A DNA stretch of 64,000 bases from Candidatus Latescibacterota bacterium. GTDB lineage: Bacteria > Latescibacterota > UBA2968 > UBA8231. Below are positions 5,934 to 52,784 of the stretch, piece by piece. The position numbers and the translations under genes were made by a program. The stretch lies in contig CBDETY010000003.1 of NCBI GenBank assembly GCA_965243025.1, forward strand, positions 1,280,001 to 1,344,000, read 5' to 3'. Position 1 is the first letter of the stretch. Every line of letters starts with the position of its first letter. The notes beneath the pieces were generated by a model, which saw only the letters and a program-made list of their open reading frames with translations, was not told where the DNA came from and did no database searches.

Positions 5934-6100
5934 GTACCGGATTCCTCCTTGAGGGGAGGACCCTCCGGGGAAGGAGAGGAATTGAGGCGGAGTCAGGGGA
6001 TTGTGACGATTTTGTGCCGCCAGGGGACCTGCGCATCCCTGAGAGCGCAAGGGTGGCTGCCAATCGTGACCGATCGCAGCGAGGAGCGGAAGCCGACCCT

Positions 6101-25479: not shown

Positions 25480-26475
25480 CTATTCGAACAGCTTCGCCCT
25501 TTCCTTCGACCGGTGATGAGTGTAGGGAGTCGGAGGAACCTCCGTCGCCAGCAGATCCCGGTAGGTCAGCCGCTTCCGCATCATCCGCGCGGTCAGGTAC
25601 CTCATCTGCTCGTCGGGGTCCAGGTTGCGGATGTTGTGCCTGCCTGTGATCTCCTTGAGGTATCGGGGCAGATACTTGGGAGACACGTGGTGGTGGGTCC
25701 CGTATATCGTTCGCTTCGCCTTGGCCCAGAACGATTCCATGCCGTTGGTGTGAACATCCCCTCGGACGTATTCATCCTTGTGGTTGACGGTTTCGTGTCT
25801 TCCCCGCCATCCGAAATTATCGCGAAAGACCGGGGCATTGTCGCTGAAAAGGGTGCCCTCCGGGCGTACGTTTTCCTCGGCGAAGGGGAACACGGTCTCG
25901 CGTGTCTCATCAGGAACCACCTTGGCGGCCACGTCGCCGGTTTCCCGGCACCACATTCCGCTCACCGGGGTACTGCCATACCTCCATTTCCAGTGAAACT
26001 TCTTGTCGGCGTGCCTGTTTTTATCGTCTCCGGCGAACCAGGCTTGATCTATCTCGGCTACCCTGCTGCGCAGCGGTTCGGGATCCGGCCAGGCTTCCCG
26101 GATGCGGTGCAGCAGGAACGAGGCCGACGGATACGCCAGATTCAGGTCGCGGCTCAGCTGCCTGGCGCTGATTCCCTTCGGGTGGGACAGGTGCAGGTAG
26201 ACGGCGGTTGCCCATTTCTCCAAGGGGATCTTGGAGTGCGACATGACCGTTCCGGTGCGCACGCTGAAGCGCTTGCGGCAGCCGCCGCACCAGTAGGGCA
26301 TGGGTTTGCGGCCGGGACATTCCGAGACCCCGCCGGAGCGGCCGCAGCGCGGACAGCGTATGGATTCGGCCAGGCCGTCTGAGGTCTTTCCCAATATGAG
26401 CTGTTCGAACCATTCTTCTGCCGTCGTATTGCCTGAAAAGTTTACCGATAACCAGATACCATTGTCATTATCCAT
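25480..26475 (-). CDS. IS1595-family (ISXO2-like DDE) transposase, left arm
   Basis: Zn ribbon CPRCG...YWCGGC, then EIDQ, FSDN and HTNGMESFW catalytic motifs. Confidence 0.93.
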   Translation of the reverse strand: MDNDNGIWLSVNFSGNTTAEEWFEQLILGKTSDGLAESIRCPRCGRSGGVSECPGRKPMPYWCGGCRKRFSVRTGTVMSHSKIPLEKWATAVYLHLSHPKGISARQLSRDLNLAYPSASFLLHRIREAWPDPEPLRSRVAEIDQAWFAGDDKNRHADKKFHWKWRYGSTPVSGMWCRETGDVAAKVVPDETRETVFPFAEENVRPEGTLFSDNAPVFRDNFGWRGRHETVNHKDEYVRGDVHTNGMESFWAKAKRTIYGTHHHVSPKYLPRYLKEITGRHNIRNLDPDEQMRYLTARMMRKRLTYRDLLATEVPPTPYTHHRSKERAKLFE

Positions 26476-27940: not shown

Positions 27941-28858
27941 CTATCCGAGAATATCGTGAAGGCGAAGATAGATATCCCCTGTCTGCGAAGCGTGTCTCCT
28001 CTTCCTGAGCAGGAGCTCCACAAGCTCTATGCGACCCTCCAGTACCGCCATTAGATCACTACCATCCATAAGAACCATGAGGCGCCTCCCGCTGGAGTGC
28101 TTTCTTACTGCGTCTTCTGAGAAACCGTTTATCGATAGGAATAGACCGAGTGTGTTTTCCAGTTTCGCGCGAAGCTTCTCGCTAAATACGCTGAGGTCAG
28201 GGGACCCTGACTGCTCGTCACGCCACTTGGCTTCGAATAGGAAATCCACTCCCTCGAAAGAGAATGCCCCGTCGAGTTGCTCACCTATGATTCTGAACGC
28301 AGCTTTCGGATCCAAGTCGAAGAGATCAAACAGTCCGAGCATTAGACGTTCGAGGGCGTAACCACGTTCGGTAGGAGTTTGGCTAAGCAGTTTGTAGTAC
28401 TCCTGTCGCAACTCTCCCAGTCGTTTGCTTACGCCTTCATTCCTGAGCCGTTTTTCTAGGCTTCTCCTTCGCCTTTCTTCGATCCGTTCCTGCTCATCTA
28501 CAAGCGCATGGTGGGCTTCCGACAGTTTGGCTAGTGCTTCGACAGCCTCCTTCGCTCGGCTCTCTTTGACTGCTCCGTCCTCAAGTTGTCGCAGGTGAGT
28601 GAAATCTCTTATTCGCGTGACTTCGGAAATGAGCCGAAGTAAGTCGCCCTGATGCTTGTCTTGATCTCGTGCTAGGAACTCGACAAGCGTCGTGACGATA
28701 TTTCGTTTATAGTCTTCCCAATTCAGGCTGGAGAGTATAGCGGGATTGCTGATAGCATTTAGGAGAAAACTCCGGAGATCAGACTTATACCAGTATACAT
28801 GCGTTAGAGCGTGTTTCAGCGCATTGATAGCTGCGGGAGAAATCAATTTGCGTTCCAT
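27941..28858 (-). CDS. Mrr-like PD-(D/E)xK restriction endonuclease with N-terminal helical domain
   Basis: RGYALE...EQLDGAF...FLFEAKW nuclease motif. Visibly lower GC than the backbone. Confidence 0.8.
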   Translation of the reverse strand: MERKLISPAAINALKHALTHVYWYKSDLRSFLLNAISNPAILSSLNWEDYKRNIVTTLVEFLARDQDKHQGDLLRLISEVTRIRDFTHLRQLEDGAVKESRAKEAVEALAKLSEAHHALVDEQERIEERRRRSLEKRLRNEGVSKRLGELRQEYYKLLSQTPTERGYALERLMLGLFDLFDLDPKAAFRIIGEQLDGAFSFEGVDFLFEAKWRDEQSGSPDLSVFSEKLRAKLENTLGLFLSINGFSEDAVRKHSSGRRLMVLMDGSDLMAVLEGRIELVELLLRKRRHASQTGDIYLRLHDILG

Positions 28859-28914
28859 TTAGATCTTTCTGAGTCCTATCGCTACTTGACCTGCCGAAGG
28901 CATGATGTACCTGC

Positions 28915-30084
28915 TAGTGTCCCGTCGCATTAATTCGTTCACAAATCTCTTGATCTTAGCGAGGATGGAATCAGCCGTGGCCGTCCATACGAAGGGGTGG
29001 GCCTTTTGGTTCCAATGGTCTGTGAAGTGCTCAATGCGACGGATCCATTCCTTCACCTTCCTGAAGGAGCCGCGTGGAATCGCCCGCCGCGTGAGGATGC
29101 CGAACCAGATCTCCACCTGGTTTAGCCAGCACGCATAGGTCGGGGTGAAATGGAGGTGGAAGCGGGGGTGTCGAGCCAGCCACTGCTTTACTTTGGCGTG
29201 TTTGTGGGTAGCGTAGTTATCGACTACCAGATGAAGGTCCAGATCCGCCGGCACCTGGTCCTCGATGTGGCGCAGAAACTGGAGAAATTCCTGATGCCGA
29301 TGGCGGGGCTTGCACTGCGCCATGACCTCTCCGCTCTCGATGTCGAGCGCCGCAAACAGGGTGGTCGTGCCATGGCGCTTGTAGTCGTGGGTTACCCCTT
29401 CCACATAGCCCAGACCCAAAGGCAGCAACGGCTGGCTGCGCTCCAGGGCCTGGATCTGGCTCTTCTCGTCTACGCACAACACCAGGGCGTGCTCGGGAGG
29501 GTTCAGATACAGACCGACGATGTCGCGCACTTTCTCCACGAAGAACGGATCGGTGGACAGTTTGAAGGTCTTCTGCCGATGGGGCTGTAAGCCGAAGGTG
29601 CGCCAGATGCGATGCACCGTGTCCTTGGACATCCCCGACGCGGCCGCCATGGAGCGCACCGTCCACTGGGTCTGGTGTTCGGGCTTCTCGTTGAGCGTCT
29701 TGTATACGACCGCCGCCACCTGCTCGTCATCAATGGAGCGGGGCGTCCCCGGACGCAGCCGTCATACAGGCCCATGAGACCTTGCTCCACAAAGCGCTTG
29801 CGCCACTTTCCAACGGTCGCCGGCGAGGTGGACAACCTGCGGGCAATGGCTTGGTTGGGCCACCCGTCGGCGGCCAGCAGAACAATCTCTGCACGACGGA
29901 CGAGACCGTGGGGCGTAGAGCGTGAGCTGGCTAGAGATTGCAATTGCTTTCGAGTCGATTCACTCAATTCGAACGGAGCCAACGGGCGTCCGGATCGCAT
30001 CGTGTCTCTCCTTTGGAAAAGGTCCTTGGAGAAGGATACCTACGACGCGGGTATTATGCTAGTAATTTCTGAGACTATACACTA
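28915..30084 (-). mobile_element. IS630-family insertion sequence with a frameshifted transposase
   Basis: Imperfect IRs TAGTGT...GTC.CA..AATT at both ends, TA duplication in a CTAG target, and DEKSQIQAL, DNYATH and WLNQVEIWF motifs. Apparent 1-bp deletions near 29760 and 28945. Confidence 0.92.
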
Positions 30085-30149
30085 GTACCACCTACCCATG
30101 GCCTATAGCATCACGGGGATAGAACTGCAAAATGGCTCCCCCCGGACTT

Positions 30150-31256
30150 CTAGGACGAATCAACAATTCTGACTTGTAGGTTATTGCGACGTTCTGCGTT
30201 TGAAATGGTAGCTACGGTCGCCGAAAGTTGCCCCAGATCGAGAGCCCACCGATCCCCTGTCCCGGAGCTGTAGGGTGGCTTGAAGCCCTTGGGAGAAGGA
30301 TACTCAACCTGTATGTCAGGGTACAATGCCTTCGCGAAGTAGCAGCCGATAGCCTGCAATTTACTGCCGGCGGGGGCCAACAAGATTCGGTGGTTAACAG
30401 ACAAATCCCAGTACAAGCGGGAGACAACTTCCACCGTCTCCCGATAGTCCAACGTGGAGACAACACGCTTTGGTAGTACGGCATTGTGTGTGCCCGAAAC
30501 TACTGGATTATCACCCTCCCACTCTCGTCGAACTTGGTCATGAATCCAGGCGGTAGCCTCCTCACGCCACCTATGGTAGGGAGGTCGACTGTTGATCAGA
30601 AGAAGCCGGCTTGGGTAGACCGTATTCAGGAGAACCTGGGTGAGGGCATCATTGAACGACATGAACACGATCGCCGCGGTCGGCTGCCCCTGCATTGCGA
30701 CACTGGACAGAGAATCAACTCGCACCACACCATGGACCCCGGTAAAAACCGAAACGCTAGGCTGATGAAGCCTCCCCCTCCTCTTCGCGTCCTCGAACTC
30801 CTCTTGGTTGGGCCCATACGCCTCAGCCTCAGCGTACACGATAAATACCTCAACCTGCAATCTGCAACAAACGTTCAAGACAAGGATAATCGCTAGCTTG
30901 GACATAGTTGACACGTCAAGAATCACCCTCCGGGCCCGGCTTCCCTGCAACTTGGCATGCAGACGCGTCTCGAAATCTCCTGGTTCGAAACGGTTGTACT
31001 GAAGGACATCACTGTCTGTAATGGCAACGCCCCGTGCGGCAAGTCGGCCTCGCACCTCCACCAGTCGGTTTCTAGGGTCCTTCGGAACGTAGTCTAACAG
31101 AATCCCCTTCGCGTTCCTTGCGCTGTCCCCGAACATCTCAGGAATTGCCAGCGCTCGATCCTCGAATCCGGGGGCATGAACCAGAACATCCCCATCAAAG
31201 CACTCAACGCTCTTGCATGCCTGAAGGGGGGGCAACAAATCAGCAATTCTGTTCAT
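30150..31256 (-). CDS. Hypothetical protein, possibly two tandem CARF-like Rossmann domains
   Basis: APGFEDRA, VILDVSTMSK and LLAPAGSKLQAIG segments resemble CARF-like strand-loop-K motifs. The fold call is inference. Confidence 0.65.
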   Translation of the reverse strand: MNRIADLLPPLQACKSVECFDGDVLVHAPGFEDRALAIPEMFGDSARNAKGILLDYVPKDPRNRLVEVRGRLAARGVAITDSDVLQYNRFEPGDFETRLHAKLQGSRARRVILDVSTMSKLAIILVLNVCCRLQVEVFIVYAEAEAYGPNQEEFEDAKRRGRLHQPSVSVFTGVHGVVRVDSLSSVAMQGQPTAAIVFMSFNDALTQVLLNTVYPSRLLLINSRPPYHRWREEATAWIHDQVRREWEGDNPVVSGTHNAVLPKRVVSTLDYRETVEVVSRLYWDLSVNHRILLAPAGSKLQAIGCYFAKALYPDIQVEYPSPKGFKPPYSSGTGDRWALDLGQLSATVATISNAERRNNLQVRIVDSS

Positions 31257-31307
31257 CGCGCTCTCTCATCTGGTAATTCTCACGGACACACCACCTCCTT
31301 CAATGCT

Positions 31308-34004
31308 CTATAATCCCTCTCCGTCAGCCCCTTCTTGCAGGTCATCGTATGCGGCATCATGCTCACTCGCCTGCAGGAAGGGCATCACCAACTGGCTTTC
31401 GGGAGTACTAGAGTCCGAACGCCTACTGAAGATGGCATCTTTGAATCGGTCCGGCTCCAACAACAGTTTGATGAAGTCGTCACACTTCAGTTGAACGCTG
31501 TCACGCTTGGACAAAGCAAGCGAACAAAAGGGGAGCAAGAGCCGCCGCAAATACAGGCGGGGGACGAAGGCTCCACGGACACTCTTCCCCCTACTGTCGC
31601 GCATAAAAAGGCCGTACCTCACCAAGTCCACATATACCTCTTGTGCAAGTCCACTAATGCGAAAGTCATCGACGATTTCCATTCGAAACGCCATCCGGGG
31701 CACCTCTCTGTCCAAGGAGCCCTCGGAGATTTGGTATGTGGGCCCGAGCAATAGTTCTCTGGCCGCCGCGACGAAGGCCTCGACAACAGCTTTGAGATGC
31801 TCGCCGTAGGCACCGGCCAGCTGGAAATCGGCCTTGTCCTGCTGGAGAGCTGCTAATGTGTGCTCAACGCGGTTCGGATTGGTCGGTTCGTTGCGAGTTT
31901 GGGAGTCAAGCCACTGGCCTCCACGATTACGGAAGATTCGATCCTGAGTCTCGTCCGGGACAGGTAGGTCAACCTGGGAGGTCTGCTCGTTGTTCGTCTT
32001 GGGCGCGTCATCAACAATGTCCGTCATCAGTTGGATCAAGGTCCGAGTATCCCCGGACCAAAGATCCGCGAATACACTGGCGCCGGTGTAGGTAACACGT
32101 GCTCGCGAGGGGCCCCGACGTTGGGAACTGCCATCAATGGGCACCGGGTTAGACACAATAGGGACCCTTGTCCTCAACCGACGTGCGAATTCAGTCTTGG
32201 AGAAGGGCGTCTTGCCGAGGACGGCTCCGAGGGTGGCGTCTTGATCGGGAACACGCGGATCAAAGGCCAGCCTTCGGGAAAACACCTCCTCGAGGAAGGA
32301 TAGGCGCTCCTCATCCGAAAGAAACAGAGCTTCCTCACCCATGTCGACCAATTGGTAATCGTCTCCGTCCTGCAGCTTTTTACCGCTGGAGTCTTCAGAG
32401 ACAAACGTACAAAAGGCTTCGGTCGCGATCTTGGAGAGGAAGTTTGGAGACCGTTGGAGAAACAGCCGGTTCAGAACTCGCTGCATAGAATGGGAGACTC
32501 GGGGAGTGGAGAAGTCATCGACAAACAAGAGCACTGACCTGTCTCCGAACCAAGGAGAACATGACCTAACAGCGGTGACAAACCTGGTCAGCCATCCAAA
32601 CTGGGCCATGTCCGCAAAGGCAGGGAAAGGCGTAAAGGCGTCATCAAGAAATGTCCACTTGATGTGCTCAACAATTGTTCGATACCGCTCCAATCGGTCC
32701 TCCCCGTCGATCAAGTGGACCTCGTCTGGCGGCACTACCCATCCCTCGACCATCGCAAGGAACTCGTCTGTCACCGGTTCCTGGAGCCGGCCCGTCCGCG
32801 CTGATTGGACGCCAAGCAGATCGGCCAAGACACATAGGTTGGCGTAACAGACCAACCGCTTTTCATCATCCTTCGTAGGTCTCGATGGATAGCGTGAAAA
32901 CACGTCAGCTAGATCGTTGGCATTGACGTACAACGCTACGAATTGGTTCCGCATCGGGAGAGCGGTAACCTCCCCGCACTCCACCACAAGCCGTTCGCTC
33001 AGCCGTCTAAACAGCATGGTCTTACCACAGCCTCGTGGTCCGGTCACAACAGTCGGAATGTCGAGGGCCAAGATCTTGGAACGGGCGGGCACGGTAGGGA
33101 CAAATAGGCGTTCCCACCAGTTCCACCGCTCACCGATCATTTCACTCACTTGGAATTGCCCCACAGACCCCTCTTCAGTGGATGTGTGACCAGGGGCCGC
33201 AGTTTGGAGCGCCGATAGATCGTGCGCTTTCGCCTGTCGCTTCATTTCGAGAAGCGCCTGAAGGAGTTCCCGGGGGCCCCTACGCTCTGATCCTAGATCT
33301 CTCAAGAGTTTTCCCAAGTCTTGGCGAATTCTTAGCAGAATCTTTCGGTCCGTAGCAGTGGTCTTTGAGTAGTCAATATGCTCAAGGATCTTGTTGATGA
33401 TGATCGCTAATCCCTCGTAATCATCCTTGGGCAACACGGCCGCACCTGTTGCTCCGTATCCGAAGTCGGATACAAATACTGGAGCCCGCCTCTGTAGGGA
33501 GTCGTCCAGCATGGTAGCGGAGGCGTCCCCGATGAGGATGTTGCCGGGATGCAAGTCTCCATGGCGAGCAACACCCCTCTCCTGGCAGGAGTTTAGCACG
33601 TGCAAAATGCGCTCAATCACTGAGACGAGGAAGCTTGTGCTGACTTGCTCCACGCGCTGGAGGTGGGCGTTCAAGTTTTCCCCAGGTGGTATGTAATCCC
33701 ATACGGTATACTGACAAAGATGTGTCTCTCCCTGGTGGGTTATCTGTTCAGGGCCTAGTCCGTGAAAGTGAACCACATGGGGAACGAGGTTCAGCAGCAT
33801 GACCTTGTTCAATTCGACCTGCCAGCCGTTTCTCAATTCGTCAAAAATCAGTTTGATTGCCCATGGGGGGCCGGGGAATTCGGTCTGTTCTGCGCGGTAC
33901 ACATAGCCAATCTTGCCGGCTCCGATAAATTCCAGAAGCTTGTACCCATTGACTAGGTGGCCCGATAGGCTGCGTCGCCATTCGTCGGACTGCCTTCTTT
34001 GCAT
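31308..34004 (-). CDS. Ser/Thr protein kinase fused to a P-loop (STAND/ORC-CDC6-like) ATPase
   Basis: Kinase motifs GAGKIG, AIK, HGDLHPGN and DFG, then Walker A GPRGCGKT and Walker B LLFVDD. Start taken at MQRRQS. Confidence 0.85.
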   Translation of the reverse strand: MQRRQSDEWRRSLSGHLVNGYKLLEFIGAGKIGYVYRAEQTEFPGPPWAIKLIFDELRNGWQVELNKVMLLNLVPHVVHFHGLGPEQITHQGETHLCQYTVWDYIPPGENLNAHLQRVEQVSTSFLVSVIERILHVLNSCQERGVARHGDLHPGNILIGDASATMLDDSLQRRAPVFVSDFGYGATGAAVLPKDDYEGLAIIINKILEHIDYSKTTATDRKILLRIRQDLGKLLRDLGSERRGPRELLQALLEMKRQAKAHDLSALQTAAPGHTSTEEGSVGQFQVSEMIGERWNWWERLFVPTVPARSKILALDIPTVVTGPRGCGKTMLFRRLSERLVVECGEVTALPMRNQFVALYVNANDLADVFSRYPSRPTKDDEKRLVCYANLCVLADLLGVQSARTGRLQEPVTDEFLAMVEGWVVPPDEVHLIDGEDRLERYRTIVEHIKWTFLDDAFTPFPAFADMAQFGWLTRFVTAVRSCSPWFGDRSVLLFVDDFSTPRVSHSMQRVLNRLFLQRSPNFLSKIATEAFCTFVSEDSSGKKLQDGDDYQLVDMGEEALFLSDEERLSFLEEVFSRRLAFDPRVPDQDATLGAVLGKTPFSKTEFARRLRTRVPIVSNPVPIDGSSQRRGPSRARVTYTGASVFADLWSGDTRTLIQLMTDIVDDAPKTNNEQTSQVDLPVPDETQDRIFRNRGGQWLDSQTRNEPTNPNRVEHTLAALQQDKADFQLAGAYGEHLKAVVEAFVAAARELLLGPTYQISEGSLDREVPRMAFRMEIVDDFRISGLAQEVYVDLVRYGLFMRDSRGKSVRGAFVPRLYLRRLLLPFCSLALSKRDSVQLKCDDFIKLLLEPDRFKDAIFSRRSDSSTPESQLVMPFLQASEHDAAYDDLQEGADGEGL

Positions 34005-34056
34005 GGTTGCTTGAAGTTTCTCCGGGCCTGGAGTGGGGGAAGGGCTTGGGCAGGGC

Positions 34057-35208
34057 TTAGGGCTTCCTGAATACCAGGACAGTTTCGTTCTTGGTGCCCT
34101 TGCATTTGCGTCTGGAGCGGCGGATGTCGGGAATCTTGTCCTCGTAGACGTGTTCCAGATGAAATTCCTTAAGCATAGGCTCAGTGTCAAATACGGTGTG
34201 AGCGAGAGTCGCCGTGCAACTCGGTCGGCGACGTCCGCGAGTTGAGTCGCCTAGCACTAGGACTATTCGGCCACCGGGGAGCACCTTAGGCCCAATTCGG
34301 GTGCACACCTTGGTAAGGAGTGCGCTGAACGATCGTTCACGGTCGCGGGCCTGCGGGTCGTAATTGCGTGGCAATCTACGTTCATGGAACCATAGGCGTA
34401 GGCGATTGTCCCTTACGTAATGAAGCTCATTCATGTAGGGGGGGCTAGTGATTACGGTTGTGATCTCGCGGAGGGGGGGGAACAGTCGTGCGTCTGTCTC
34501 GACTACCCACCTCCGCTGAAGGAGATGGGCCGGGGGGCGGCGGTATGTTCGTCGTAGCTTCGATTGCAGCCTGTGAAGGACGTCTCGTTGTTCGTACATT
34601 TCGGGGAAAGCGTCCCTTGGGAAGTTTTTGGTGCGGAGATATGGCACAAGATGGCTACTTGGGTAAGAGAGGAATCCTGGTCGCTGATGGTGTAGGATTC
34701 CGAGTAAGCAGGCTAGGAGGAAGTCGTCGTGCCTTTGGACGCACTCGTCGCGGAAAGCAAGGGCGCTTCGGAGCGTTTCTGGATGAAAGAAGGCGCGAAC
34801 CCATTTGGGTATTCGTCGCAGATCCTGGGACATCAGACGTTGGCGAGAGCCTTCCCACACTTCCTGCAATCTGAGGTTGGCACTCTCTATGGTAGGGGGA
34901 GCGAACAACTTTGCCCGGGTAAGCAGCACAGCATATGAATTCCAGTCACCTGCAATCACTTGACGATTGCCTAGTGCTGCCTCGAGAGCTACCACCCCGC
35001 TCCCACAGAAGGGGTCAACGAGGAGGTCGCCAGGGTCTGTATAACGGTCGATGAGTGAGCGAGCCATCGACGTCTTCATTCGGCCAATATATGGTGCCAA
35101 TTGATGGAATGTACAGTCGGTGGCGAGAGTTGACTCCTTAGTCCAGATTGGGCCTTGCTTTGAGCAGGGAAGCACCGGCGTAGTGGATGTACTTGGAAAG
35201 CCTGTCAT
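34057..35208 (-). CDS. DNA methyltransferase, probably N4-cytosine
   Basis: Motif I DPFCGSG precedes motif IV TSPPY. Confidence 0.85.
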   Translation of the reverse strand: MTGFPSTSTTPVLPCSKQGPIWTKESTLATDCTFHQLAPYIGRMKTSMARSLIDRYTDPGDLLVDPFCGSGVVALEAALGNRQVIAGDWNSYAVLLTRAKLFAPPTIESANLRLQEVWEGSRQRLMSQDLRRIPKWVRAFFHPETLRSALAFRDECVQRHDDFLLACLLGILHHQRPGFLSYPSSHLVPYLRTKNFPRDAFPEMYEQRDVLHRLQSKLRRTYRRPPAHLLQRRWVVETDARLFPPLREITTVITSPPYMNELHYVRDNRLRLWFHERRLPRNYDPQARDRERSFSALLTKVCTRIGPKVLPGGRIVLVLGDSTRGRRRPSCTATLAHTVFDTEPMLKEFHLEHVYEDKIPDIRRSRRKCKGTKNETVLVFRKP

Positions 35209-35401: not shown

Positions 35402-36129
35402 CTACCATGCGAAGTGTAGCCCGCGCTGCCGCAGATGCTCCCGCCGGCGTTCATAGTCCGGCATGAGCCTCCCGAGGGCCTGCCAGTACTCCCGCCCGTG
35501 GCCCCGGTGGCACAGGTGCACCAACTCGTGGACCACCACATAGTCCACCAAACGCATCGGGGCCTGGATGATGCGCCAGTTCAGCCGGATGGTGCCGCCG
35601 CGGTCGCAGCTGCCCCAGCGCCTCTTTTGGTCTGAGATCACAACCCGGGGCATTTCCACGCCGGCCTTCGGGCACCACATCTCCACCCTTTCCGGCAGCC
35701 GCTCTGCGGCGTGACCCCGCAGCCACGAAACCAGCGCCGCTCGCACGTGATCCCGCTGCTCCGCTCCCGCCGGCGCCGGCACGTGCAGCCACCCGCCTCG
35801 CAGCTTCGCCTCTCCGGTGCCGCCGGAATCAACCTTCAGCCGGTAGTGCCGACCCAGGTACATCACGCTCTCCCCGCTGACGAACTCCCGCGGCGATAGC
35901 GGCACTCCGTTTGACCCCACCCCCCGAAGCCGCTGGACGATCCACCCTGCCTTCCGCTGGACGACCGCATCGAGCCGGTCGGTGCTGAAATTCTCGGGCG
36001 CGAGAAGCAACACCCCGCCCCCGGGATCCACTGTCACCGCAACGGTCTTCTTCCGCCGGGCACTGCGCCGAATAGCGTACGTCACCCTCGTATCCCCCCA
36101 GGTGATGGCCGAGGTCTCCAGGCTTCCCG

Positions 36130-36133
<4 letters not shown>
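35402..36133 (-). CDS. YgjP/DUF45 (M48-like) metal-dependent hydrolase associated with type I R-M
   Basis: RWGSC and DYVVVHELVH (HExxH). Overlaps the hsdR stop. Confidence 0.9.
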
Positions 36134-39140
<3,007 letters not shown>

Positions 39141-39144
<4 letters not shown>

Positions 39145-40305
39145 GCAGCCTTGATGTCGGGGGCGACACGGAGTTCGCCGGTGAGGAGGACGGACATAAG
39201 GGCAGACTTAGCGACCTGCACTTGATCGATATACGCCTGTTTCCTCTGGAGGACTTCGTCCAGAGACGATAGGATCGTGGAAATCTCGGTTTGCTCTGAC
39301 AAGGAAGGCACAGGGATCGGGATGCTATTGAGGTCAGCCTGATTGAGTTTCGATCGTGTCGCCGCGTTGATGAATGGGCGAACATCCCTGTGCACCAAGG
39401 AGTAGTAGAACCATGAATTGTTGAATCCGTCCTTCGTGCGTAGGACATGCGCATGGTTGTTCACCCAACACTTCCCGTCGACCATATATGCGATGGGTCG
39501 AGTTCGGTACTCATCAAAGTAACCACCGTCCTCAGCCATCAGGATGAGTGGTTCATCAAAGATCCAATCCGACACGTGGTCAACAACACCGTTCGCACCG
39601 TAGTAGGGATACGGCCCTCTCATGCTCTCCCGCTGGCTCTTGTTGAGGGGCTTTCTCCTGCGGTCAAGAACTTCAAAAACCTCCTGAACTAACTTGACCT
39701 CCCACACCTCTGGAATTTCTCCGATCTCCGTCTGCTTGAACCGCGTGTGCCGGCCCGGCAGGCCCCGCGTGAGCAGCTCCTGCATCAGGCCCCGCTTGAC
39801 GACCTGCACTTGGTCGATGACCGCCTGGGTCTTCTCGATAGCGTCGTCCACCGAGGAGAGGATGGCGGCAATCTTCCGCTGCTCCGCCGGAGAGGGAAGC
39901 GGAAGTTTCAACCCACAAAGATCAGTCTTGTTCACTGCAGCGAATGTGCTGCCCTGGGAAACGCGGACAAGGCCAGACACCATCCTCCGGAGTGCATGCC
40001 ACAAGAAGGTAGATTCGACGCCGGTCGCGGTTATTGCGGACAACCCTCTTCCAATACAAATCCGCGTGTCCGCCAAGTTCAGAGCTCCAACCGGTGCTCG
40101 AACACTCAAGAGGATGTCCCCTAGCTGAGCCTCCTTCTGCGGCTTACTGCAGTATTTTACCGGTTGCGGGGTATGAGCACCGAACTCCGCATTTCCTTGG
40201 ATAAAGGGAGGTCCATCTCCGTCTTCGTTTACGGTGCTCGACGGAGGTGACTGGCCCATGTTGACCGTGGCAACGTCACCTAGACGAACCGTTTCCCAGT
40301 CAAGG

Positions 40306-40313
<8 letters not shown>
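39141..40313 (-). CDS. hsdS: Type I R-M specificity subunit S
   Basis: Two lower-GC TRDs separated by the conserved PSPAEQRKIAAILSSVD / KRGLMQELLT helices. Confidence 0.94.
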
Positions 40314-42141
<1,828 letters not shown>

Positions 42142-45034: not shown

Positions 45035-45070
45035 CCCCTGTCGGCTTCGTGCCGGCAGGGGGTTTTTGTT
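45035..45070 (+). terminator. Rho-independent terminator
   Basis: CCCCTGTCGGC-TTCGT-GCCGGCAGGGG followed by TTTTTGTT. Confidence 0.65.
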
Positions 45071-45137
45071 GGTGTTCACCGAGCGAAGACGGACGAAGTC
45101 ATCACCCCCCGACAGAACAGTACCAGAAAGGACCCCC

Positions 45138-45575
45138 ATGAAACTCGAAGTCGTAGAACGCAAGGTGCGGCAGATCTGGCAGGACGTATGCTCGGAGCCG
45201 CTCACCAGTCCCGACGAGGTGCTCGCCTACCTGGATACCCTCGACATAGCCTCAGCCGACAGGGAGGTATTCATCGTCCTCCACCTCGACACGCGCAATC
45301 GCGTAGTCGCACATGAGACGACCTCCATCGGCAGTCAGAACGCTTCCCTTGTCCATCCCCGAGAGGTGTTCAAGGCAGCGATCCTCAAGGGAGCAACCAG
45401 CATCATTCTGGCGCACAATCACCCCTCCGGGGATCCGGCGCCCTCCAAGGAAGACATCGATCTCACCCACCGTCTTGCCGAGGCCGGCGGCCTGATGGGG
45501 ATTCAGGTGCTCGATCATGTCGTCGTCGCTCCTCCTGGCGAAAGCGTGTCCATGAAGGAGCTCGGGATCGTATAG
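45138..45575 (+). CDS. radC: RadC-like JAB/MPN domain protein (short form)
   Basis: DREVF, LVHPREVFK, HNHPSGDPAPSKED and VLDHVV motifs. Confidence 0.92.
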   Translation: MKLEVVERKVRQIWQDVCSEPLTSPDEVLAYLDTLDIASADREVFIVLHLDTRNRVVAHETTSIGSQNASLVHPREVFKAAILKGATSIILAHNHPSGDPAPSKEDIDLTHRLAEAGGLMGIQVLDHVVVAPPGESVSMKELGIV

Positions 45576-45617: not shown

Positions 45618-46610
45618 ATGAAACTTTTTAAACGATTCCTGGGCCGCTGGTCCAAAGCCGGCAGGGGGCTCGTCCCGGAAGGGCCGGGAAGGAACGACCG
45701 GAAAGGTCTGTCCCTGATCGAGCTGTTCGCCAGGTTCCCCGACGACGCGGCCGCGGAACGCTGGTTCGAGGAAACCCGGTGGAGCAAGCAGATCCACTGC
45801 CCCCACTGCGGCTGTTACGGCATGATATCGGAATGTCCCGACCGCAAATCCATGCCCTACTGGTGCGGGGACTGCCGAAAGCGATTCAGCGTTCGCACCG
45901 GAACGGTGCTGTCCCACTCCAAGGTCCCCCTGCAGAAATGGGTGATCGCCATCTACCTGCACCTGTCCAGCCTCAAGGGCGTGTCCAGCCTGAAGCTGCA
46001 CCGGGACCTCCAGGTAACGCATGCAACGGCCTGGTTCATGGGCCACCGGATACGCGAAGCCTGGTCGGACCAGGAGAAGCTCTCAAGCAGGAGAGGCGAG
46101 ATCGACCAGGCCTATTTTGGCGGAAAGGAGGCCAACAAGCACGCCGACAAGAGACTGCGGGAACGGTGGATGGAGGGAAAAACCATCGTCGTCGGGATGA
46201 AGGACAGGAAAACCGGCAAGGTCGCCGCCAGCGTGGTTCCTGCCGAAACGGCGGACATTCTGAGGGCATTTGCCCGGAAGCACCTGAGAGCAAACGGCAC
46301 CCTGTACAGCGACGGGGCCAGTGCCTTGAAGGATTTCAAGTGGCCGGGAAAATCCGAGTTCGTCATCCACTCGAAAGGCCAGTTCTCTACCGATGGGTCC
46401 CACACCAACGGCATCGAAAGCTTCTGGTCCATGATCAAGCGAGCCTACAAGGGGACCTATCACAAAATGTCCCCGAAGCACCTGCAGCGCTACGTCGACG
46501 AGTTCGTCGGAAGGCACAACATCCGCGACAAGGACACTCTTGAGCAGATGGAAGACCTGGTTGCCCGGATGGTGGGGAAACGGCTGCTGTACCGGGATCT
46601 GGTTAAATAG
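45618..46610 (+). CDS. IS1595-family transposase (third, more divergent copy)
   Basis: CPHCG...YWCGDC, EIDQAYFGG, YSDG and HTNGIESFW motifs. Confidence 0.93.
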   Translation: MKLFKRFLGRWSKAGRGLVPEGPGRNDRKGLSLIELFARFPDDAAAERWFEETRWSKQIHCPHCGCYGMISECPDRKSMPYWCGDCRKRFSVRTGTVLSHSKVPLQKWVIAIYLHLSSLKGVSSLKLHRDLQVTHATAWFMGHRIREAWSDQEKLSSRRGEIDQAYFGGKEANKHADKRLRERWMEGKTIVVGMKDRKTGKVAASVVPAETADILRAFARKHLRANGTLYSDGASALKDFKWPGKSEFVIHSKGQFSTDGSHTNGIESFWSMIKRAYKGTYHKMSPKHLQRYVDEFVGRHNIRDKDTLEQMEDLVARMVGKRLLYRDLVK

Positions 46611-47412: not shown

Positions 47413-48128
47413 ATGCCGACCGAGGGGTAGGTGCAATCCGTTGCGCCTATCCTTTAGCCGGTAACGAAAATACAGGCAAGCGACGCAGCCTGGAGGGGCA
47501 GTCCTACGATGTTCCGTGTGGACGATTACATCTGCATCACCTGTGAGCCGCCATGGAAATCCGAAGGGCTCGACTGGCCTACATCATCCATCGATTCGGC
47601 CCCCTCTTGGTGAAGCCGACGGACTCCGGCCATTTCGCCGCCTTTCCGGCCGCGACGGCTTGCTGTCCTCCCCGCAGAGAGGAAGCCGCGCGGAAATCCC
47701 CGAATTGTCGAGGAAGGTCATCACCCCGTAGCGGACTACCGCCAGCGACCGGGCTGAGTCCAGGACTCCTTGCAGAACTGTGTTGAGTCGGGGCTCTCAT
47801 TGATGCGCAGGCTGGCCTGACTCAACCGGGGTCAGGCGCTCCCGCAGGACCTCGTTGTCTCGTTCCATCTCCTCAGCAGGTTTCATCCCTCCTCTCCTTG
47901 TCGGGCTCGGTTTCCAAGCCAAATCGTCCGAAATGTCCATTTTCCACCCCCAATTTCCATAAAAAAACCGCCGAAATGGACCTTATTTTCACCGGTTTAT
48001 CACTCATGGGGGAGTTATATTATTGACCCGGTCTTTTCGTGTCGCAGCCGGTTTCCTCGGCGGAATCCCCACGCTTTTCGCAAGTGGGTTGCATCCGCCC
48101 CAGCAACGCACCAAGGGAGATATCTGGG

Positions 48129-50324
48129 ATGAAAAAGCATTCGGTGTTCCACATGGCCTTGTTGTTGGCCGGCGTCCTGATGACGCAGGACAGTATTGCC
48201 CAGAAGATCCCCCCTTTACCCGAAGGCACCCTTGCCCGCCTGGGCAAAGGGGGAATCAGCTCGGGCGACCGAGGGCTGGCCTGGTCCCCCGACGGCACGC
48301 GGCTGGCGGTGGCCGGCATAGGCGTCTGGTTGTACAACGCCCGCACCCTGTCCGAAATCGCCTGGCTCAGAGGCGATGGGGACCCTGGCCTCTCGTCGGT
48401 GTCGTTCTCCCCGGATGGTCAGACCCTGGCCAGTAGCAGTTCGGACGGGACGGTGCGGTTGTGGGAGGTGGAGACCGGGCAGGAAAAGGCCGTCCTCGAA
48501 GGCCATTCGGGTCCGGTCTACTCGGTGTCGTTCTCCCCGGATGGGTCGTTGCTGGCCAGTGGCAGTGAGGACCAGACGGTGCGGCTGTGGGAGGTGGAGA
48601 CCGGGCAGGAACAGGCGGTCCTCCAAGGCCATACGGGAAGGGTCTACTCGGTGTCGTTTTCGCCGGATGGTCAGATGTTGGCCAGTGGCAGTAGGGACGA
48701 GACGGTGCGGTTGTGGGAGGTGGAGACCGGGCAGGAACAGGCGGTCCTCCAAGGCCATGCGGGGAGCGTCTCCTCGGTGTCGTTTTCCCCGGATGGTCAG
48801 ACCCTGGCCAGTGGCGGTTGGGACGAAACGGTGCGGTTGTGGGAGGTGGAGACGGGGCAGGAACAGGCCGTCCACCAGCGCCATACGGGTGGAGTCTCCT
48901 CGGTGTCGTTCTCCCCGGATGGTCGGACCCTGGCAAGTGGCAGTTGGGACGATACGGTGCGGTTGTGGGATATGGAATCCGGGCAGCAAAGGGCGGTCCT
49001 CCGAGGCCATGCGGGGAGCGTCTCCTCGGTGTCGTTCTCGCCGGATGGTCAGACCCTGGCCAGTGGCGGTAATGACCAGAGGGTGCGGTTGTGGGATGTG
49101 GAGACGGGGCAGGAAAAGGCCGTCCTCCAAGACCATACGGGGATCGTCTACTCGGTGTCGTTCTCCCCGGATGGTCAAACCCTGGCCAGTGGCAGTTACG
49201 ACCAGACGGTGCGGTTGTGGGATGTGGAGACGGGGCAGGAAAAGGCCGTCCTCCAGGGCCATACGAGTGGAGTCTCCTCGGTGTCGTACTCCCCGGACGG
49301 TCAGACGCTGGCCAGTGCCAGTTATGACCAGACGGTGTGGTTGTGGGATGTGGAGACCGGGCAGCAAAGGGCGGTTCTCCAAGGACAGATCCAATCGGTG
49401 TCGTTCTCCCCGGATGGTCAGATGTTGGCCAGTGGCGGTTGGGACGAGACGGTGCGGTTGTGGGATGTGGAATCCGGGCAGCAAAGGGCGGTCCTCCAAG
49501 GACATAGGAGTGAGGTCGAATCGGTGTCGTTCTCCCCGGATGGGCAGACCCTGGCCAGTGGCAGTTGGGACGATACGGGGGTGCGGTTGTGGGATGTGGC
49601 CAGCGGGCAGGAAAAGGCCGTCCTCCAAGGACATACGGCTGGGATCGAATCGGTGTCGTTCTCCCCGGATGGTCAGACCCTGGCCAGTGCCGGTAATGAC
49701 CGGACGGTGCGGTTGTGGGATGTGGAGACCGGGCAGCAAAGGGCGGTCCTCCAAGGCCATACGGGTTTGGTCGAATCGGTGTCGTTCTCCCCGGATGGTC
49801 GGACCCTGGCCAGTGGCGGTTGGGACGATACGGTGCGATTGTGGGATGTGGAGACGGGGCAGGAACAGGCCGTCCTCCAAGGCCATACGCGATTGGTCTA
49901 CTCGGTGTCGTTCTCCCCGGATGGTCAGATTTTGGCCAGTGGCAGTTCGGACGGCACGATTCTGCTGTGGGACATGGCGCCCTATCTCTCCCCCATTACC
50001 GCGGTCGAAACCCTTTCTGCCTCGCTGCCGGCCTCGACGGCGCTGCTGGCCAACTATCCCAACCCCTTCAACCCTGACACCTGGATTCCCTTTCAACTGC
50101 ACGCGCCGGCCCCGGTGCGCCTGAGCATCTACGACGCCCGGGGGGCGCTGGTCCGGGAAATCGATCTGGGTCATCGGGCGGCGGGTCAGTACCTGACCAG
50201 CGCCGGCGCCCTCCGGTGGGATGGCCGCGATCAGCGCGGCCAGCGGGTCGCCAGCGGAGTGTATCTGTATCGGTTGCAGGCCGGCCGGTTCGCCCAGGTG
50301 CGCAGGATGCTCCTTCTCAAATAG
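48129..50324 (+). CDS. Secreted WD40-repeat protein (14 repeats) with C-terminal FlgD/T9SS-type-A-like domain
   Basis: Signal peptide, GH...SVSFSPDG...LWD repeats and NYPNPFNP...WDGRD...ASGVYLYRL. Confidence 0.92.
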   Translation: MKKHSVFHMALLLAGVLMTQDSIAQKIPPLPEGTLARLGKGGISSGDRGLAWSPDGTRLAVAGIGVWLYNARTLSEIAWLRGDGDPGLSSVSFSPDGQTLASSSSDGTVRLWEVETGQEKAVLEGHSGPVYSVSFSPDGSLLASGSEDQTVRLWEVETGQEQAVLQGHTGRVYSVSFSPDGQMLASGSRDETVRLWEVETGQEQAVLQGHAGSVSSVSFSPDGQTLASGGWDETVRLWEVETGQEQAVHQRHTGGVSSVSFSPDGRTLASGSWDDTVRLWDMESGQQRAVLRGHAGSVSSVSFSPDGQTLASGGNDQRVRLWDVETGQEKAVLQDHTGIVYSVSFSPDGQTLASGSYDQTVRLWDVETGQEKAVLQGHTSGVSSVSYSPDGQTLASASYDQTVWLWDVETGQQRAVLQGQIQSVSFSPDGQMLASGGWDETVRLWDVESGQQRAVLQGHRSEVESVSFSPDGQTLASGSWDDTGVRLWDVASGQEKAVLQGHTAGIESVSFSPDGQTLASAGNDRTVRLWDVETGQQRAVLQGHTGLVESVSFSPDGRTLASGGWDDTVRLWDVETGQEQAVLQGHTRLVYSVSFSPDGQILASGSSDGTILLWDMAPYLSPITAVETLSASLPASTALLANYPNPFNPDTWIPFQLHAPAPVRLSIYDARGALVREIDLGHRAAGQYLTSAGALRWDGRDQRGQRVASGVYLYRLQAGRFAQVRRMLLLK

Positions 50325-50461
50325 CCTGGCCGGGAGGGATAACGCCCAAAGTGAACCGGCCCCCGGTGTTGAAGGTCCCGGAGGTTTTCCAATTCCTGAG
50401 GCGGGATGACAGGGGAACCTGGCCGTCTTCGGGACCCCACACCCCAAAAGAGGTAGCTCGG

Positions 50462-52651: not shown

Positions 52652-52784
52652 CTGGCCGGGGGATAACTCCCAAAGCGAACCCGGCCCCCGGTTTGCAGGT
52701 CCCGGAGGTTATTCAATTCCCGAGGCGGATGACAGGGGAACCCCGGCCGCCTTCGGGACGCCACACCCAAAGGAGGTAGCTCGG

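Follow-up and report, generated by a model that had tools for sequence, protein, structure and literature searches.

The window, as we call the whole stretch of 64,000 nucleotides analysed here, contains a horizontally mobile cassette whose core is a fused kinase-ATPase and a CARF6-family sensor, with an amino-methyltransferase always alongside, and close to it the gene of an Mrr-type endonuclease. Our essential contention, to which we give a probability of about 0.55, is that these are two separate things, a mobile defence cassette resembling BREX and Pgl and an unrelated nuclease gene. Judging by its genes and their relatives, the trio probably defends against phages. An earlier note on this DNA had joined all four genes into one module with the nuclease as its effector; the trio has held as a unit in comparison with related loci and the fourth part has not, a homologue of the nuclease being found in none of the 15 loci.

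The arrangement of the region is as the earlier note described it: four co-oriented genes and an IS630 element, all on the minus strand, follow a type I restriction-modification operon and a ygjP-like gene. The latter pair (35402..42141, identified by Pfam matches and regarded here as context) comprises hsdM (40306-42141), hsdS (39141-40313), hsdR (36130-39144) and the ygjP-like gene (35402-36133), likewise on the minus strand. Downstream lie the methyltransferase gene (34057..35208, 383 aa), the kinase-ATPase gene (31308..34004, 898 aa), the gene for the tandem-Rossmann CARF6-family protein (30150..31256, 368 aa), the IS630-family insertion sequence (28917..30082) and the endonuclease gene (27941..28858, 305 aa). 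The lower GC-content ascribed to the four genes is borne out, with values of 0.50-0.57 between 28000 and 35000 and of 0.63-0.68 on either side, as is the spacing of about 50 bp between the first three: when the kinase-ATPase is taken to start at the ATG at 34004, its gene lies 52 nt from that of the methyltransferase and 51 nt from that of the 368-aa protein. If the IS630 element is removed, about 123 nt separate the stop codon of the 368-aa gene from the ATG of the nuclease gene, close to the 120 bp proposed. The element encodes a transposase with HTH_23 and DDE_3 domains in two overlapping frames and its ends, read base by base, are inverted and bordered by a duplicated TA within a CTAG target; a DDE_3 transposase, terminal inverted repeats and TA duplication together identify the family, and IS630 elements prefer CTAG targets. 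No homologue of HsdR or YgjP was found in the 15 related loci, and the adjacency of the type I operon and ygjP is therefore specific to the window. A tRNA scan found no tRNA genes in the window, and the signal of scans for promoters and terminators did not exceed shuffled controls. Two IS1595 copies were considered as the ends of a recent composite transposon, an idea rejected on their identity of only 71-75%.

The largest protein of the cassette is a Hanks-type serine/threonine kinase fused to an ORC/Cdc6-like AAA+ ATPase. Its reading frame is open upstream to a TTG at 34190 (31308-34190, 960 aa), and alignment with 13 homologues points to the ATG at 34004 as the true start. The protein matches the Pfam family ORC-CDC6-like (PF24389) at 1.1e-26, and its C-terminal 380 aa align to positions 402-571 of that family; the kinase half matches Pfam Pkinase at 1.7e-6, under the curated cut-off, and in a PDB profile search positions 17-183 match ULK1, CDK9 and PknA at values down to 1.5e-10. 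The kinase and Walker motifs had been read as intact, and the alignment agrees, since no catalytic or Walker residue varies among the 14 homologues aligned, one of which is at 29% identity: in the kinase K51, the HGDLHxGN motif (H148, D150, N155) and DFG (D180-G182), and in the ATPase the Walker A motif GPRGCGKT (K328) and the Walker B pair DD (D496, D497).

The methyltransferase carries DPFCGSG as motif I and TSPPY as motif IV, both invariant in a 13-sequence alignment, and matches the PADLOC profile MTase_II at 1.2e-20. Pfam N6_N4_Mtase is matched at 5e-10 in the motif I region only, motif I alone was matched in a PDB sequence search, and matches to NCBIfam models of the Trm14 type are weak. 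Both SPPY and FxGxG are present, and SPPY leaves the target atom unfixed; motifs of this type also occur in enzymes that methylate adenine at N6, guanine at N2 in RNA and glutamine in proteins. To label the protein an m4C enzyme, as the earlier note did, would require methylome data.

The 368-aa protein had been called CARF-like, and profile matches uphold the label. PADLOC CARF6 matches it at 1.1e-9 over residues 23-344, CARF6 profiles match all 33 members of its family that were compared (best 4.8e-14), and Pfam HFX_2341_N is found in 12 of the 33; the family has 504 database matches and counts 754 representative clusters. The AF2 model built from a 121-sequence alignment (pLDDT 95.6, pTM 0.94) consists of two Rossmann-like halves; an earlier model from 33 close homologues (pLDDT 68) left residues 161-269 unresolved and gave uninformative Foldseek matches. 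In the later model GFEDR follows the strand at 23-27 and D114-V-S-T-M-S-K120 the strand at 110-114, with P295-x-G297-S298-K299 after the corresponding strand of the second half, and the Rossmann-like fold with conserved loops after strands 1 and 4 that marks CARF6 members is thus present in the prediction. The CARF motif is reportedly [DN]x[ST]xxx[RK], a form said to go back to Makarova in 2014. Given this predicted structure, Foldseek does not set CARF apart among tandem Rossmann proteins: tandem universal stress proteins match best (4r2j at 5.3e-6, and 7mq5), the CARF protein Cad1 scores 5.3e-5, and every TM-score is at or below 0.29. A PDB sequence search returned nothing at E 0.5 or better, and the ESM Atlas returned only unnamed clusters of the protein's own family.

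The role of the 368-aa protein is suggested by the company that its module keeps. The module recurs whole, at 350 aa, in fusion proteins: P0264 joins it to HisKA and HATPase_c, P0293 to Metallophos and P0276 to TIR; a further relative, P0383, matches Csa3_N at 1e-5. In P0391 (1250 aa) kinase, ATPase and sensor module form a single chain, which resembles the kinase-ATPase (BLASTP, 4e-10) and the sensor alignment (hhalign, probability 98.2%, E 4.6e-14). Because partners as different as a histidine kinase, TIR, a phosphoesterase and even the kinase-ATPase are attached to the module in its relatives, the 368-aa protein looks like a ligand sensor, and we treat it as a presumed one on this architectural ground. 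Among the context genes of the window and 121 neighbour ORFs scanned there is no nucleotide cyclase (Cas10, CD-NTase or other), and therefore no evident source of a ligand. Complex prediction for the sensor and residues 300-898 of the kinase-ATPase scored 0.59, 0.00 and 0.06 in three runs made without controls, and speaks neither for nor against contact.

That the trio is a unit is shown by its recurrence. Methyltransferase, kinase-ATPase and sensor genes occur together in 14 of the 15 related loci, which are genome contigs from a single pattern-based scan favouring close relatives, and the fifteenth is truncated by the end of its contig. These loci come from six phyla (Acidobacteriota, Gemmatimonadota, Desulfobacterota, Pseudomonadota, Spirochaetota and Bacteroidota); the relatives closest to the window genes, at 80-86% identity, are in metagenome contigs outside this set. 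Even the most divergent locus, L015, at 28% identity, has the trio, with stops and starts overlapping, and pairwise identities of kinase-ATPase and sensor run in parallel (r = 0.96 for 28 pairs from 8 loci, a descriptive value only). No homologue of the sensor was found in phage records and just one plasmid record contains the family, also when two distant members served as queries. The kinase-ATPase gene is interrupted by a Mutator-family transposase in L011 and split in L016, and the methyltransferase is split in L005, decay that is typical of costly mobile genes. The earlier note did not recognise the combination as a named system, and indeed no PADLOC or NCBIfam model assigns the trio to one. 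The CARF6 kinase-ATPase architecture is, however, already catalogued computationally, as the PADLOC profile 'CARF6--CARF_STK_AAA', which the window protein matches at 1.4e-25. No description of the gene set as a whole was found in the literature searched, to which Makarova et al. 2020 did not belong; that paper is presumably the origin of the PADLOC CARF6 profiles, and its text or supplements may already describe the neighbourhood of the cassette.

In proposing how such a cassette might act, we envisage an anti-phage or anti-plasmid module of the BREX or Pgl kind. The methyltransferase would mark the host's own nucleic acid and the ORC/Cdc6-like half of the kinase-ATPase would engage DNA; the sensor would bind a small ligand resembling a nucleotide, one appearing or changing upon infection, and would then switch the kinase, whose phosphorylation of host or phage proteins would stop the infection. 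The model would need no classical nuclease; the trio itself contains no recognisable effector. The neighbourhood is consistent with a defensive role. Beside the type I system of the window, neighbours include McrBC in L001, REase-ARP, a Mom-like gene and a mad2-like methyltransferase in L002, DrmMI in L007, HipA in L008 and PD-Lambda-4_A in L010, and in L013 a ParA-like and SIR2 pair is nested within the cassette; defence systems adjoin the cassette in 6 of 14 loci, or 7 if the HipA toxin is counted, and the other 7 have no recognisable defence neighbour. On the Bradyrhizobium plasmid NZ_CP088025.1, where the kinase-ATPase is split, the cassette lies near an Mrr_cat gene; L003 and L008 are examples of loci in which the cassette is intact. 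The SIR2 protein of L013 was considered as an effector of the cassette and rejected for its pairing with the ParA-like gene, ParA-sirtuin pairs being described, in the available text of a preprint, as a separate system (bioRxiv 10.64898/2026.10.19.760177).

The usual fourth gene of the cassette is that of a flavin-dependent thymidylate synthase, ThyX, which in 8 of 14 loci, and likewise on the one Bradyrhizobium plasmid, lies directly 3' of the sensor gene; in L002 and L005 it sits between the sensor and methyltransferase genes. Across phyla the copies share 56-73% identity, and all retain the RHRxxS motif. The slot 3' of the sensor gene varies, holding a RusA-like gene in L001 and DUF7019 in L009, and the window has no ThyX (best E 0.074). 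ThyX does not figure in the earlier note. Other genes of precursor metabolism occur near some of the loci: L012 has DHFR and a dCTP-deaminase-like gene on its upstream side and ThyA on its downstream side, L011 an MTHFR-like gene and L006 a RibD_C gene.

This linkage could indicate nucleotide metabolism rather than immunity. The corresponding explanation is a non-immune module that regulates the supply of thymidylate or DNA precursors, or the replication of a carrier element; its sensor would respond to a metabolite of the pyrimidine or folate kind, and its kinase-ATPase would control ThyX or replication. Besides the position of ThyX, inside the cassette in two loci, its conservation across phyla and the precursor-type genes nearby, it draws on the fact that ORC/Cdc6-type ATPases are, as textbooks have it, the replication initiators of archaea and eukaryotes. 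However, no thymidylate synthase gene adjoins the cassette in 6 of 14 loci or in the window, a patchy distribution and decaying copies ill suit a housekeeping regulator, defence genes flank half of the loci, and TIR, one of the fusion partners of the sensor module, is a typical immune effector. On balance we find this explanation doubtful.

A combination of the two ideas, a thymidylate-linked immune switch, is rather improbable. Here the sensor would read a pyrimidine-nucleotide or folate metabolite disturbed by the phage, the kinase-ATPase would gate thymidylate supply, acting on the co-encoded ThyX or on a neighbouring ThyA or DHFR as in L012, and the methyltransferase would mark self. If true, either phage DNA synthesis would be starved or the cell would be protected against phages whose target is dTMP synthesis by the host, and the cassette would represent a new nucleotide-pool class of defence, in which a CARF-type sensor works without a cyclase. 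The association of the cassette with thymidylate synthesis recurs and lends itself to direct testing; in a different defence system a thymidylate synthase domain has lately been validated, according to the part of the report at hand (DefensePredictor, PMC13092281).

The defence cassette as we read it leaves the nuclease to be accounted for. The 305-aa protein is a full-length member of a family with at least 2507 matches, and its description as a PD-(D/E)xK enzyme holds by way of that family, in which the catalytic D...(D/E)-x-K pattern is present (D196 and E209 in 33 of 33 members, position 211 K in 28 and R in 5); the window protein itself has no direct Pfam match. Mrr_cat is matched by 12 of the 33 (best 1.3e-6) and EAD8 by 19 (best 1.4e-4), the EAD8 values lying under the Pfam cut-off, and the window protein gives EAD8 at 0.013 and no Mrr_cat match at E 0.1 or better. 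Its N-terminal domain is EAD8-like and a central stretch resembles a coiled coil, as judged by eye. A PDB sequence search with the family gave no match. Plasmid homologues are annotated as restriction endonuclease, and on a Delftia plasmid a member adjoins AbiEii and Qat genes.

An integrated four-gene system, in which this nuclease would act as effector under the control of kinase-ATPase and CARF-like protein, could appeal to the common orientation and lower GC-content, to the short distance that remains without IS630, and to the variable slot 3' of the sensor gene, where a lineage-specific effector is conceivable. The EAD8-like N-terminus is of the adaptor type: effectors are brought to core systems by EADs, EAD8 among them, and those so tethered may be encoded apart from the core system, as far as the available portion of the paper goes (eLife 2020, Kaur et al., PMC7159879). 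A small helical EAD-like domain before an Mrr-clade endonuclease is common to those effectors and to the 305-aa protein; in the window, however, the EAD8 match is below the cut-off, and no cassette protein or other window ORF carries an EAD8-like N-terminal domain as its cognate partner. What counts against the integrated system is that the nuclease family is missing from all 15 cassette loci, being a separate family with unrelated contexts and about five times as many matches in the same database as the sensor family (at least 2507 against 504); its closest homologues (n=7, 81-86% identity) and those of the sensor apparently lie on different contigs, which is a weak argument. We consider the system to be improbable, read the nuclease as an independent neighbour parted from the cassette by IS630, and advise against annotating it as a component. 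A type II restriction-modification pair of methyltransferase and nuclease was likewise tried and does not fit, the former being present in 14 loci and the latter in none of the 15. Least probable of all is that the real unit is kinase-ATPase and sensor, with the methyltransferase an independent orphan or part of nearby restriction genes: its identities track those of the other genes poorly (r = 0.25-0.47) and it may be found upstream of them, downstream (L002 and L005) or, as in L004, on the other strand, but it is present in all 14 complete loci, including L015 at 28% identity, and is therefore not a chance neighbour.

A close parallel to the cassette among known systems is BREX type 2 or Pgl, which likewise combines a DNA methyltransferase, a serine/threonine kinase and AAA+ ATPases of the ORC/Cdc6 clade and has no classical restriction nuclease in its core; the components named in the available text are the PglX methyltransferase, the PglW kinase and the ORC/Cdc6-clade ATPases BrxC and BrxD (PMC12839542), a text that makes no mention of thymidylate. 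The cassette differs in that its kinase is fused straight to the ATPase, in its CARF6-type sensor and in the frequent presence of ThyX, and none of the five window proteins matches PADLOC models of PglZ, BrxC/DUF499, PglX, PglW or PglY at E 0.01 or better. MADS is also methylation-linked with kinase and ATPase components, and the window kinase domain matches mad6 at 1.1e-8, with marginal matches of window proteins to mad2 (3e-5) and mad8 (0.0068). However, the match to the NCBIfam MAD6 model scores 25.5 bits, its cut-off being 460, and MADS is an eight-gene operon (mad1-mad8) with two ATPase-nuclease modules, as its partly available description has it (PMC13662399). The single-gene defence kinases PD-T4-6 match the Hanks-type domain at values down to 7.9e-11, but the matched region, from about residue 74 to 230 in the 960-aa ORF, takes in only the N-lobe and catalytic loop of the kinase, and they lack the ORC/Cdc6 ATPase, sensor and methyltransferase, all three of which the cassette has.

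The proposed logic is shared with HINPO and related ORC-CDC6-based systems, which, in the available text of their preprint, join an ORC-CDC6-like DNA sensor to a domain that senses a diffusible nucleotide. Their parts are different, namely HEPN, an inactive nucleotidyltransferase and ParA, and the same text mentions CARF once and neither ThyX nor SIR2 (bioRxiv 10.64898/2026.10.19.760177, the source cited above for the ParA-sirtuin pairs). With the CARF sensors of type III CRISPR systems and Csa3-like regulators (HFX_2341 / DUF6293) the 368-aa protein shares a Rossmann-like sensor domain and varied output fusions; it differs from them in that its monomer has two domains instead of one CARF domain, in having a kinase-ATPase as its partner and in the absence of Cas10 or any other cyclase nearby. 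The C-terminal domain of HFX_2341 binds DNA according to the accessible text of PMC11434293. Should the trio prove to be an immune module, a CARF-type sensor would be coupled in it, without a cyclase, to an ORC/Cdc6-like ATPase and a protein kinase, and CARF-like sensors would then be able to read signals beyond the messengers of CRISPR and CBASS.

The methyltransferase, kinase-ATPase and 368-aa sensor genes form a real mobile cassette. Scanning genomes, one for each species, recovered 15 related loci (L001-L015) from six phyla, and homologues of all three genes stand together in 14 of these, the contig of the fifteenth being cut beside the sensor gene. The trio is kept even in a Bacteroidota locus at 28% identity, where stop and start codons overlap, and it is carried by a Bradyrhizobium quebecense plasmid. 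Kinase-ATPase and sensor identities track closely across loci (r = 0.96), while those of the methyltransferase follow the other cassette genes less well (0.25-0.47), and its gene differs in position or strand in three loci. Split genes occur in the cassettes of L005 and of a further locus, L016; in L011 a Mutator-family transposase gene (6512-7750) interrupts the kinase-ATPase gene.

In the window the cassette is encoded on the minus strand by a methyltransferase ORF (383 aa, 34057-35208), a kinase-ATPase ORF (960 aa, 31308-34190) and the sensor ORF (30150-31256), followed by the 305-aa ORF (27941-28858), also on the minus strand. Homologue alignment places the kinase-ATPase start at the ATG at 34004, giving a protein of 898 aa and, consequently, gaps of 52 and 51 nt among the first three genes. 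GC content is 0.50-0.57 across the four genes against 0.63-0.68 outside, and upstream of the trio lie hsdM, hsdS, hsdR and a ygjP-like gene, the last two of which overlap, hsdR stop to ygjP-like start. An IS630-family element (28917-30082), flanked at both ends by the duplicated TA of a CTAG target, separates the 368-aa and 305-aa genes, which would otherwise be about 123 nt apart. The earlier note's description of four co-oriented, lower-GC genes beside hsdMSR-ygjP, closely spaced once IS630 is removed, is thus accurate. The transposase is encoded in two frames that overlap, 29503-30000 and 28859-29719; the latter continues beyond the element's end at 28917 and terminates a single base short of the 305-aa gene's ATG. 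A pair of IS1595-family transposase genes, inverted relative to each other (25480-26475 and 45618-46610), brackets the cassette, the type I restriction-modification genes and a RadC-like JAB-domain gene (45066-45575; Pfam RadC 6e-42) that adjoins the second copy; since they are only 71-75% identical, we reject a recent composite transposon. Three large tandem genes at 48039-54992 (761, 811 and 735 aa) consist almost entirely of WD40 repeats, through which one matches the PADLOC HEAT-ARM_XIII profile.

The proposal that the Mrr-like nuclease is the effector of a four-gene system does not survive the same survey: the trio co-occurs, and a 305-aa homologue is found in none of the 15 cassette loci. 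The protein belongs over its full length to a family of 2507 matches that occurs in other contexts; plasmid homologues are annotated as restriction endonucleases, one of them flanked by an AbiEii gene and a Qat system. Among 33 close members, Pfam Mrr_cat matches 12 and EAD8, an effector-associated adaptor domain, matches 19; D196, E209 and K/R211 are conserved. The window protein itself matches EAD8 at 0.013, without an Mrr_cat match at E 0.1 or better, and no other window ORF carries such an N-terminal domain. The nuclease is not part of the cassette, and we read its gene as an independent island gene. By analogy with EAD proteins, described as recruited effectors encoded apart from the core system (PMC7159879), its product may act as a recruited effector for a system whose genes lie elsewhere.

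The kinase-ATPase matches protein kinases of the Hanks type over its N-terminal 230 residues; a 14-homologue profile matches ULK1, CDK9, PknA and StkP (down to 1.5e-10), and the window protein as a single sequence matches Pfam Pkinase at 1.7e-6, under the Pfam cut-off. The remainder matches Pfam ORC-CDC6-like (PF24389, 1.1e-26), the C-terminal 380 residues covering profile positions 402-571. The kinase and Walker motifs, noted before as intact, are invariant in all 14 aligned sequences (catalytic lysine, HGDLHxGN, DFG, Walker A GPRGCGKT, Walker B DD).

The 368-aa protein has no significant match in Pfam or NCBIfam, and its previous CARF-like label finds support in PADLOC CARF6 profiles, which match it at 1.1e-9 over almost its full length and match all 33 aligned family members (best 4.8e-14). 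Twelve of these members also have some match to Pfam HFX_2341_N, which PMC11434293 describes as the N-terminal domain of a Csa3-like regulator in haloarchaea. The family comprises 504 matches among 90% clusters and 754 representatives at 50% identity. An AlphaFold2 model from a 121-sequence alignment (pLDDT 95.6, pTM 0.94) has two Rossmann-like halves, with D114-x-S116-x-x-x-K120 after a strand in the first and P295-x-G297-S298-K299 after its counterpart in the second. Foldseek returned tandem-Rossmann matches without setting CARF apart: all had low TM-scores (at most 0.29), those to tandem universal stress proteins ranking above the CARF protein Cad1, and so the CARF assignment rests on profiles rather than structure comparison. 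In relatives the whole module is found attached to the histidine-kinase domains HisKA and HATPase_c (P0264), TIR (P0276), an unassigned 380-aa C-terminal region (P0284) or Metallophos, a calcineurin-like phosphoesterase domain (P0293), and one 1250-aa protein (P0391) joins kinase, ORC/Cdc6-like ATPase and sensor module in a single chain. Because the module keeps its shape while the fused output changes, we infer that it is a ligand sensor.

The most interesting thing to emerge is a recurrent tie to thymidylate synthesis. A gene for ThyX, the flavin-dependent thymidylate synthase, is next to the sensor gene in eight of 14 loci (L002-L006, L008, L010 and L013), co-oriented in seven, and lies between sensor and methyltransferase genes in two; the Bradyrhizobium quebecense plasmid has the same order, sensor then annotated thyX. 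The ThyX proteins score about 1e-50 with Pfam Thy1 and 4e-63 with 6j61, a solved enzyme. Between phyla they share 56-73% identity, retaining the RHRxxS motif. Those of the eight loci are 307-352 aa long and extend past the Thy1 domain by a conserved C-terminal stretch of about 80 residues. In L012 (4821-11892) the cassette is preceded by DHFR and a dCTP-deaminase-like gene and followed by a convergent, canonical ThyA (4e-123), where the theme recurs via a non-homologous enzyme. An MTHFR-like gene is present in L011 and a RibD_C gene in L006; a search of the window found no ThyX.

The thymidylate link could reflect metabolism and not defence. Like the want of a recognisable effector inside the trio, of a nucleotide cyclase among the window context genes or 121 scanned neighbour ORFs, and of a recognisable defence neighbour in seven of the 14 loci, it weakens a defensive reading. 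That reading is favoured by plasmid carriage, patchy distribution, gene decay, the TIR fusion in a relative, and defence neighbours, which occur in the window and in six of 14 loci (seven if a HipA toxin gene is counted) and include McrBC, DrmMI, PD-Lambda-4_A, REase-ARP and a nested ParA-SIR2 pair. The last is found in L013 (2954-4844), where the methyltransferase and kinase-ATPase genes enclose genes for a ParA-like ATPase and SIR2 (PADLOC ThsA 2.3e-20), with stop and start codons that overlap; in L002 a co-oriented Mom-family gene (6032-6937; Pfam Mom 4.5e-10) is directly upstream of the kinase-ATPase gene. On balance the trio is probably a defensive cassette, to which we assign a probability of roughly 0.6. 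That its kinase would work in BREX/Pgl fashion, ligand-gated and with no nuclease, is considerably less likely. The earlier observation is confirmed, and its interpretation finds partial support, for three of the four genes.

Full-text literature searches found no description of the trio gene set or its ThyX link. A PADLOC profile named CARF6--CARF_STK_AAA exists, and the sensor-kinase-ATPase architecture has thus been catalogued already, we presume in Makarova et al. 2020. Among known systems the cassette comes closest in its working to BREX type 2/Pgl and to MADS; both also join a methyltransferase, a kinase and ATPases, but membership tests place it in neither. We class the trio as a variant of this methylation-plus-kinase/ATPase kind whose CARF-type sensor is cyclase-free.
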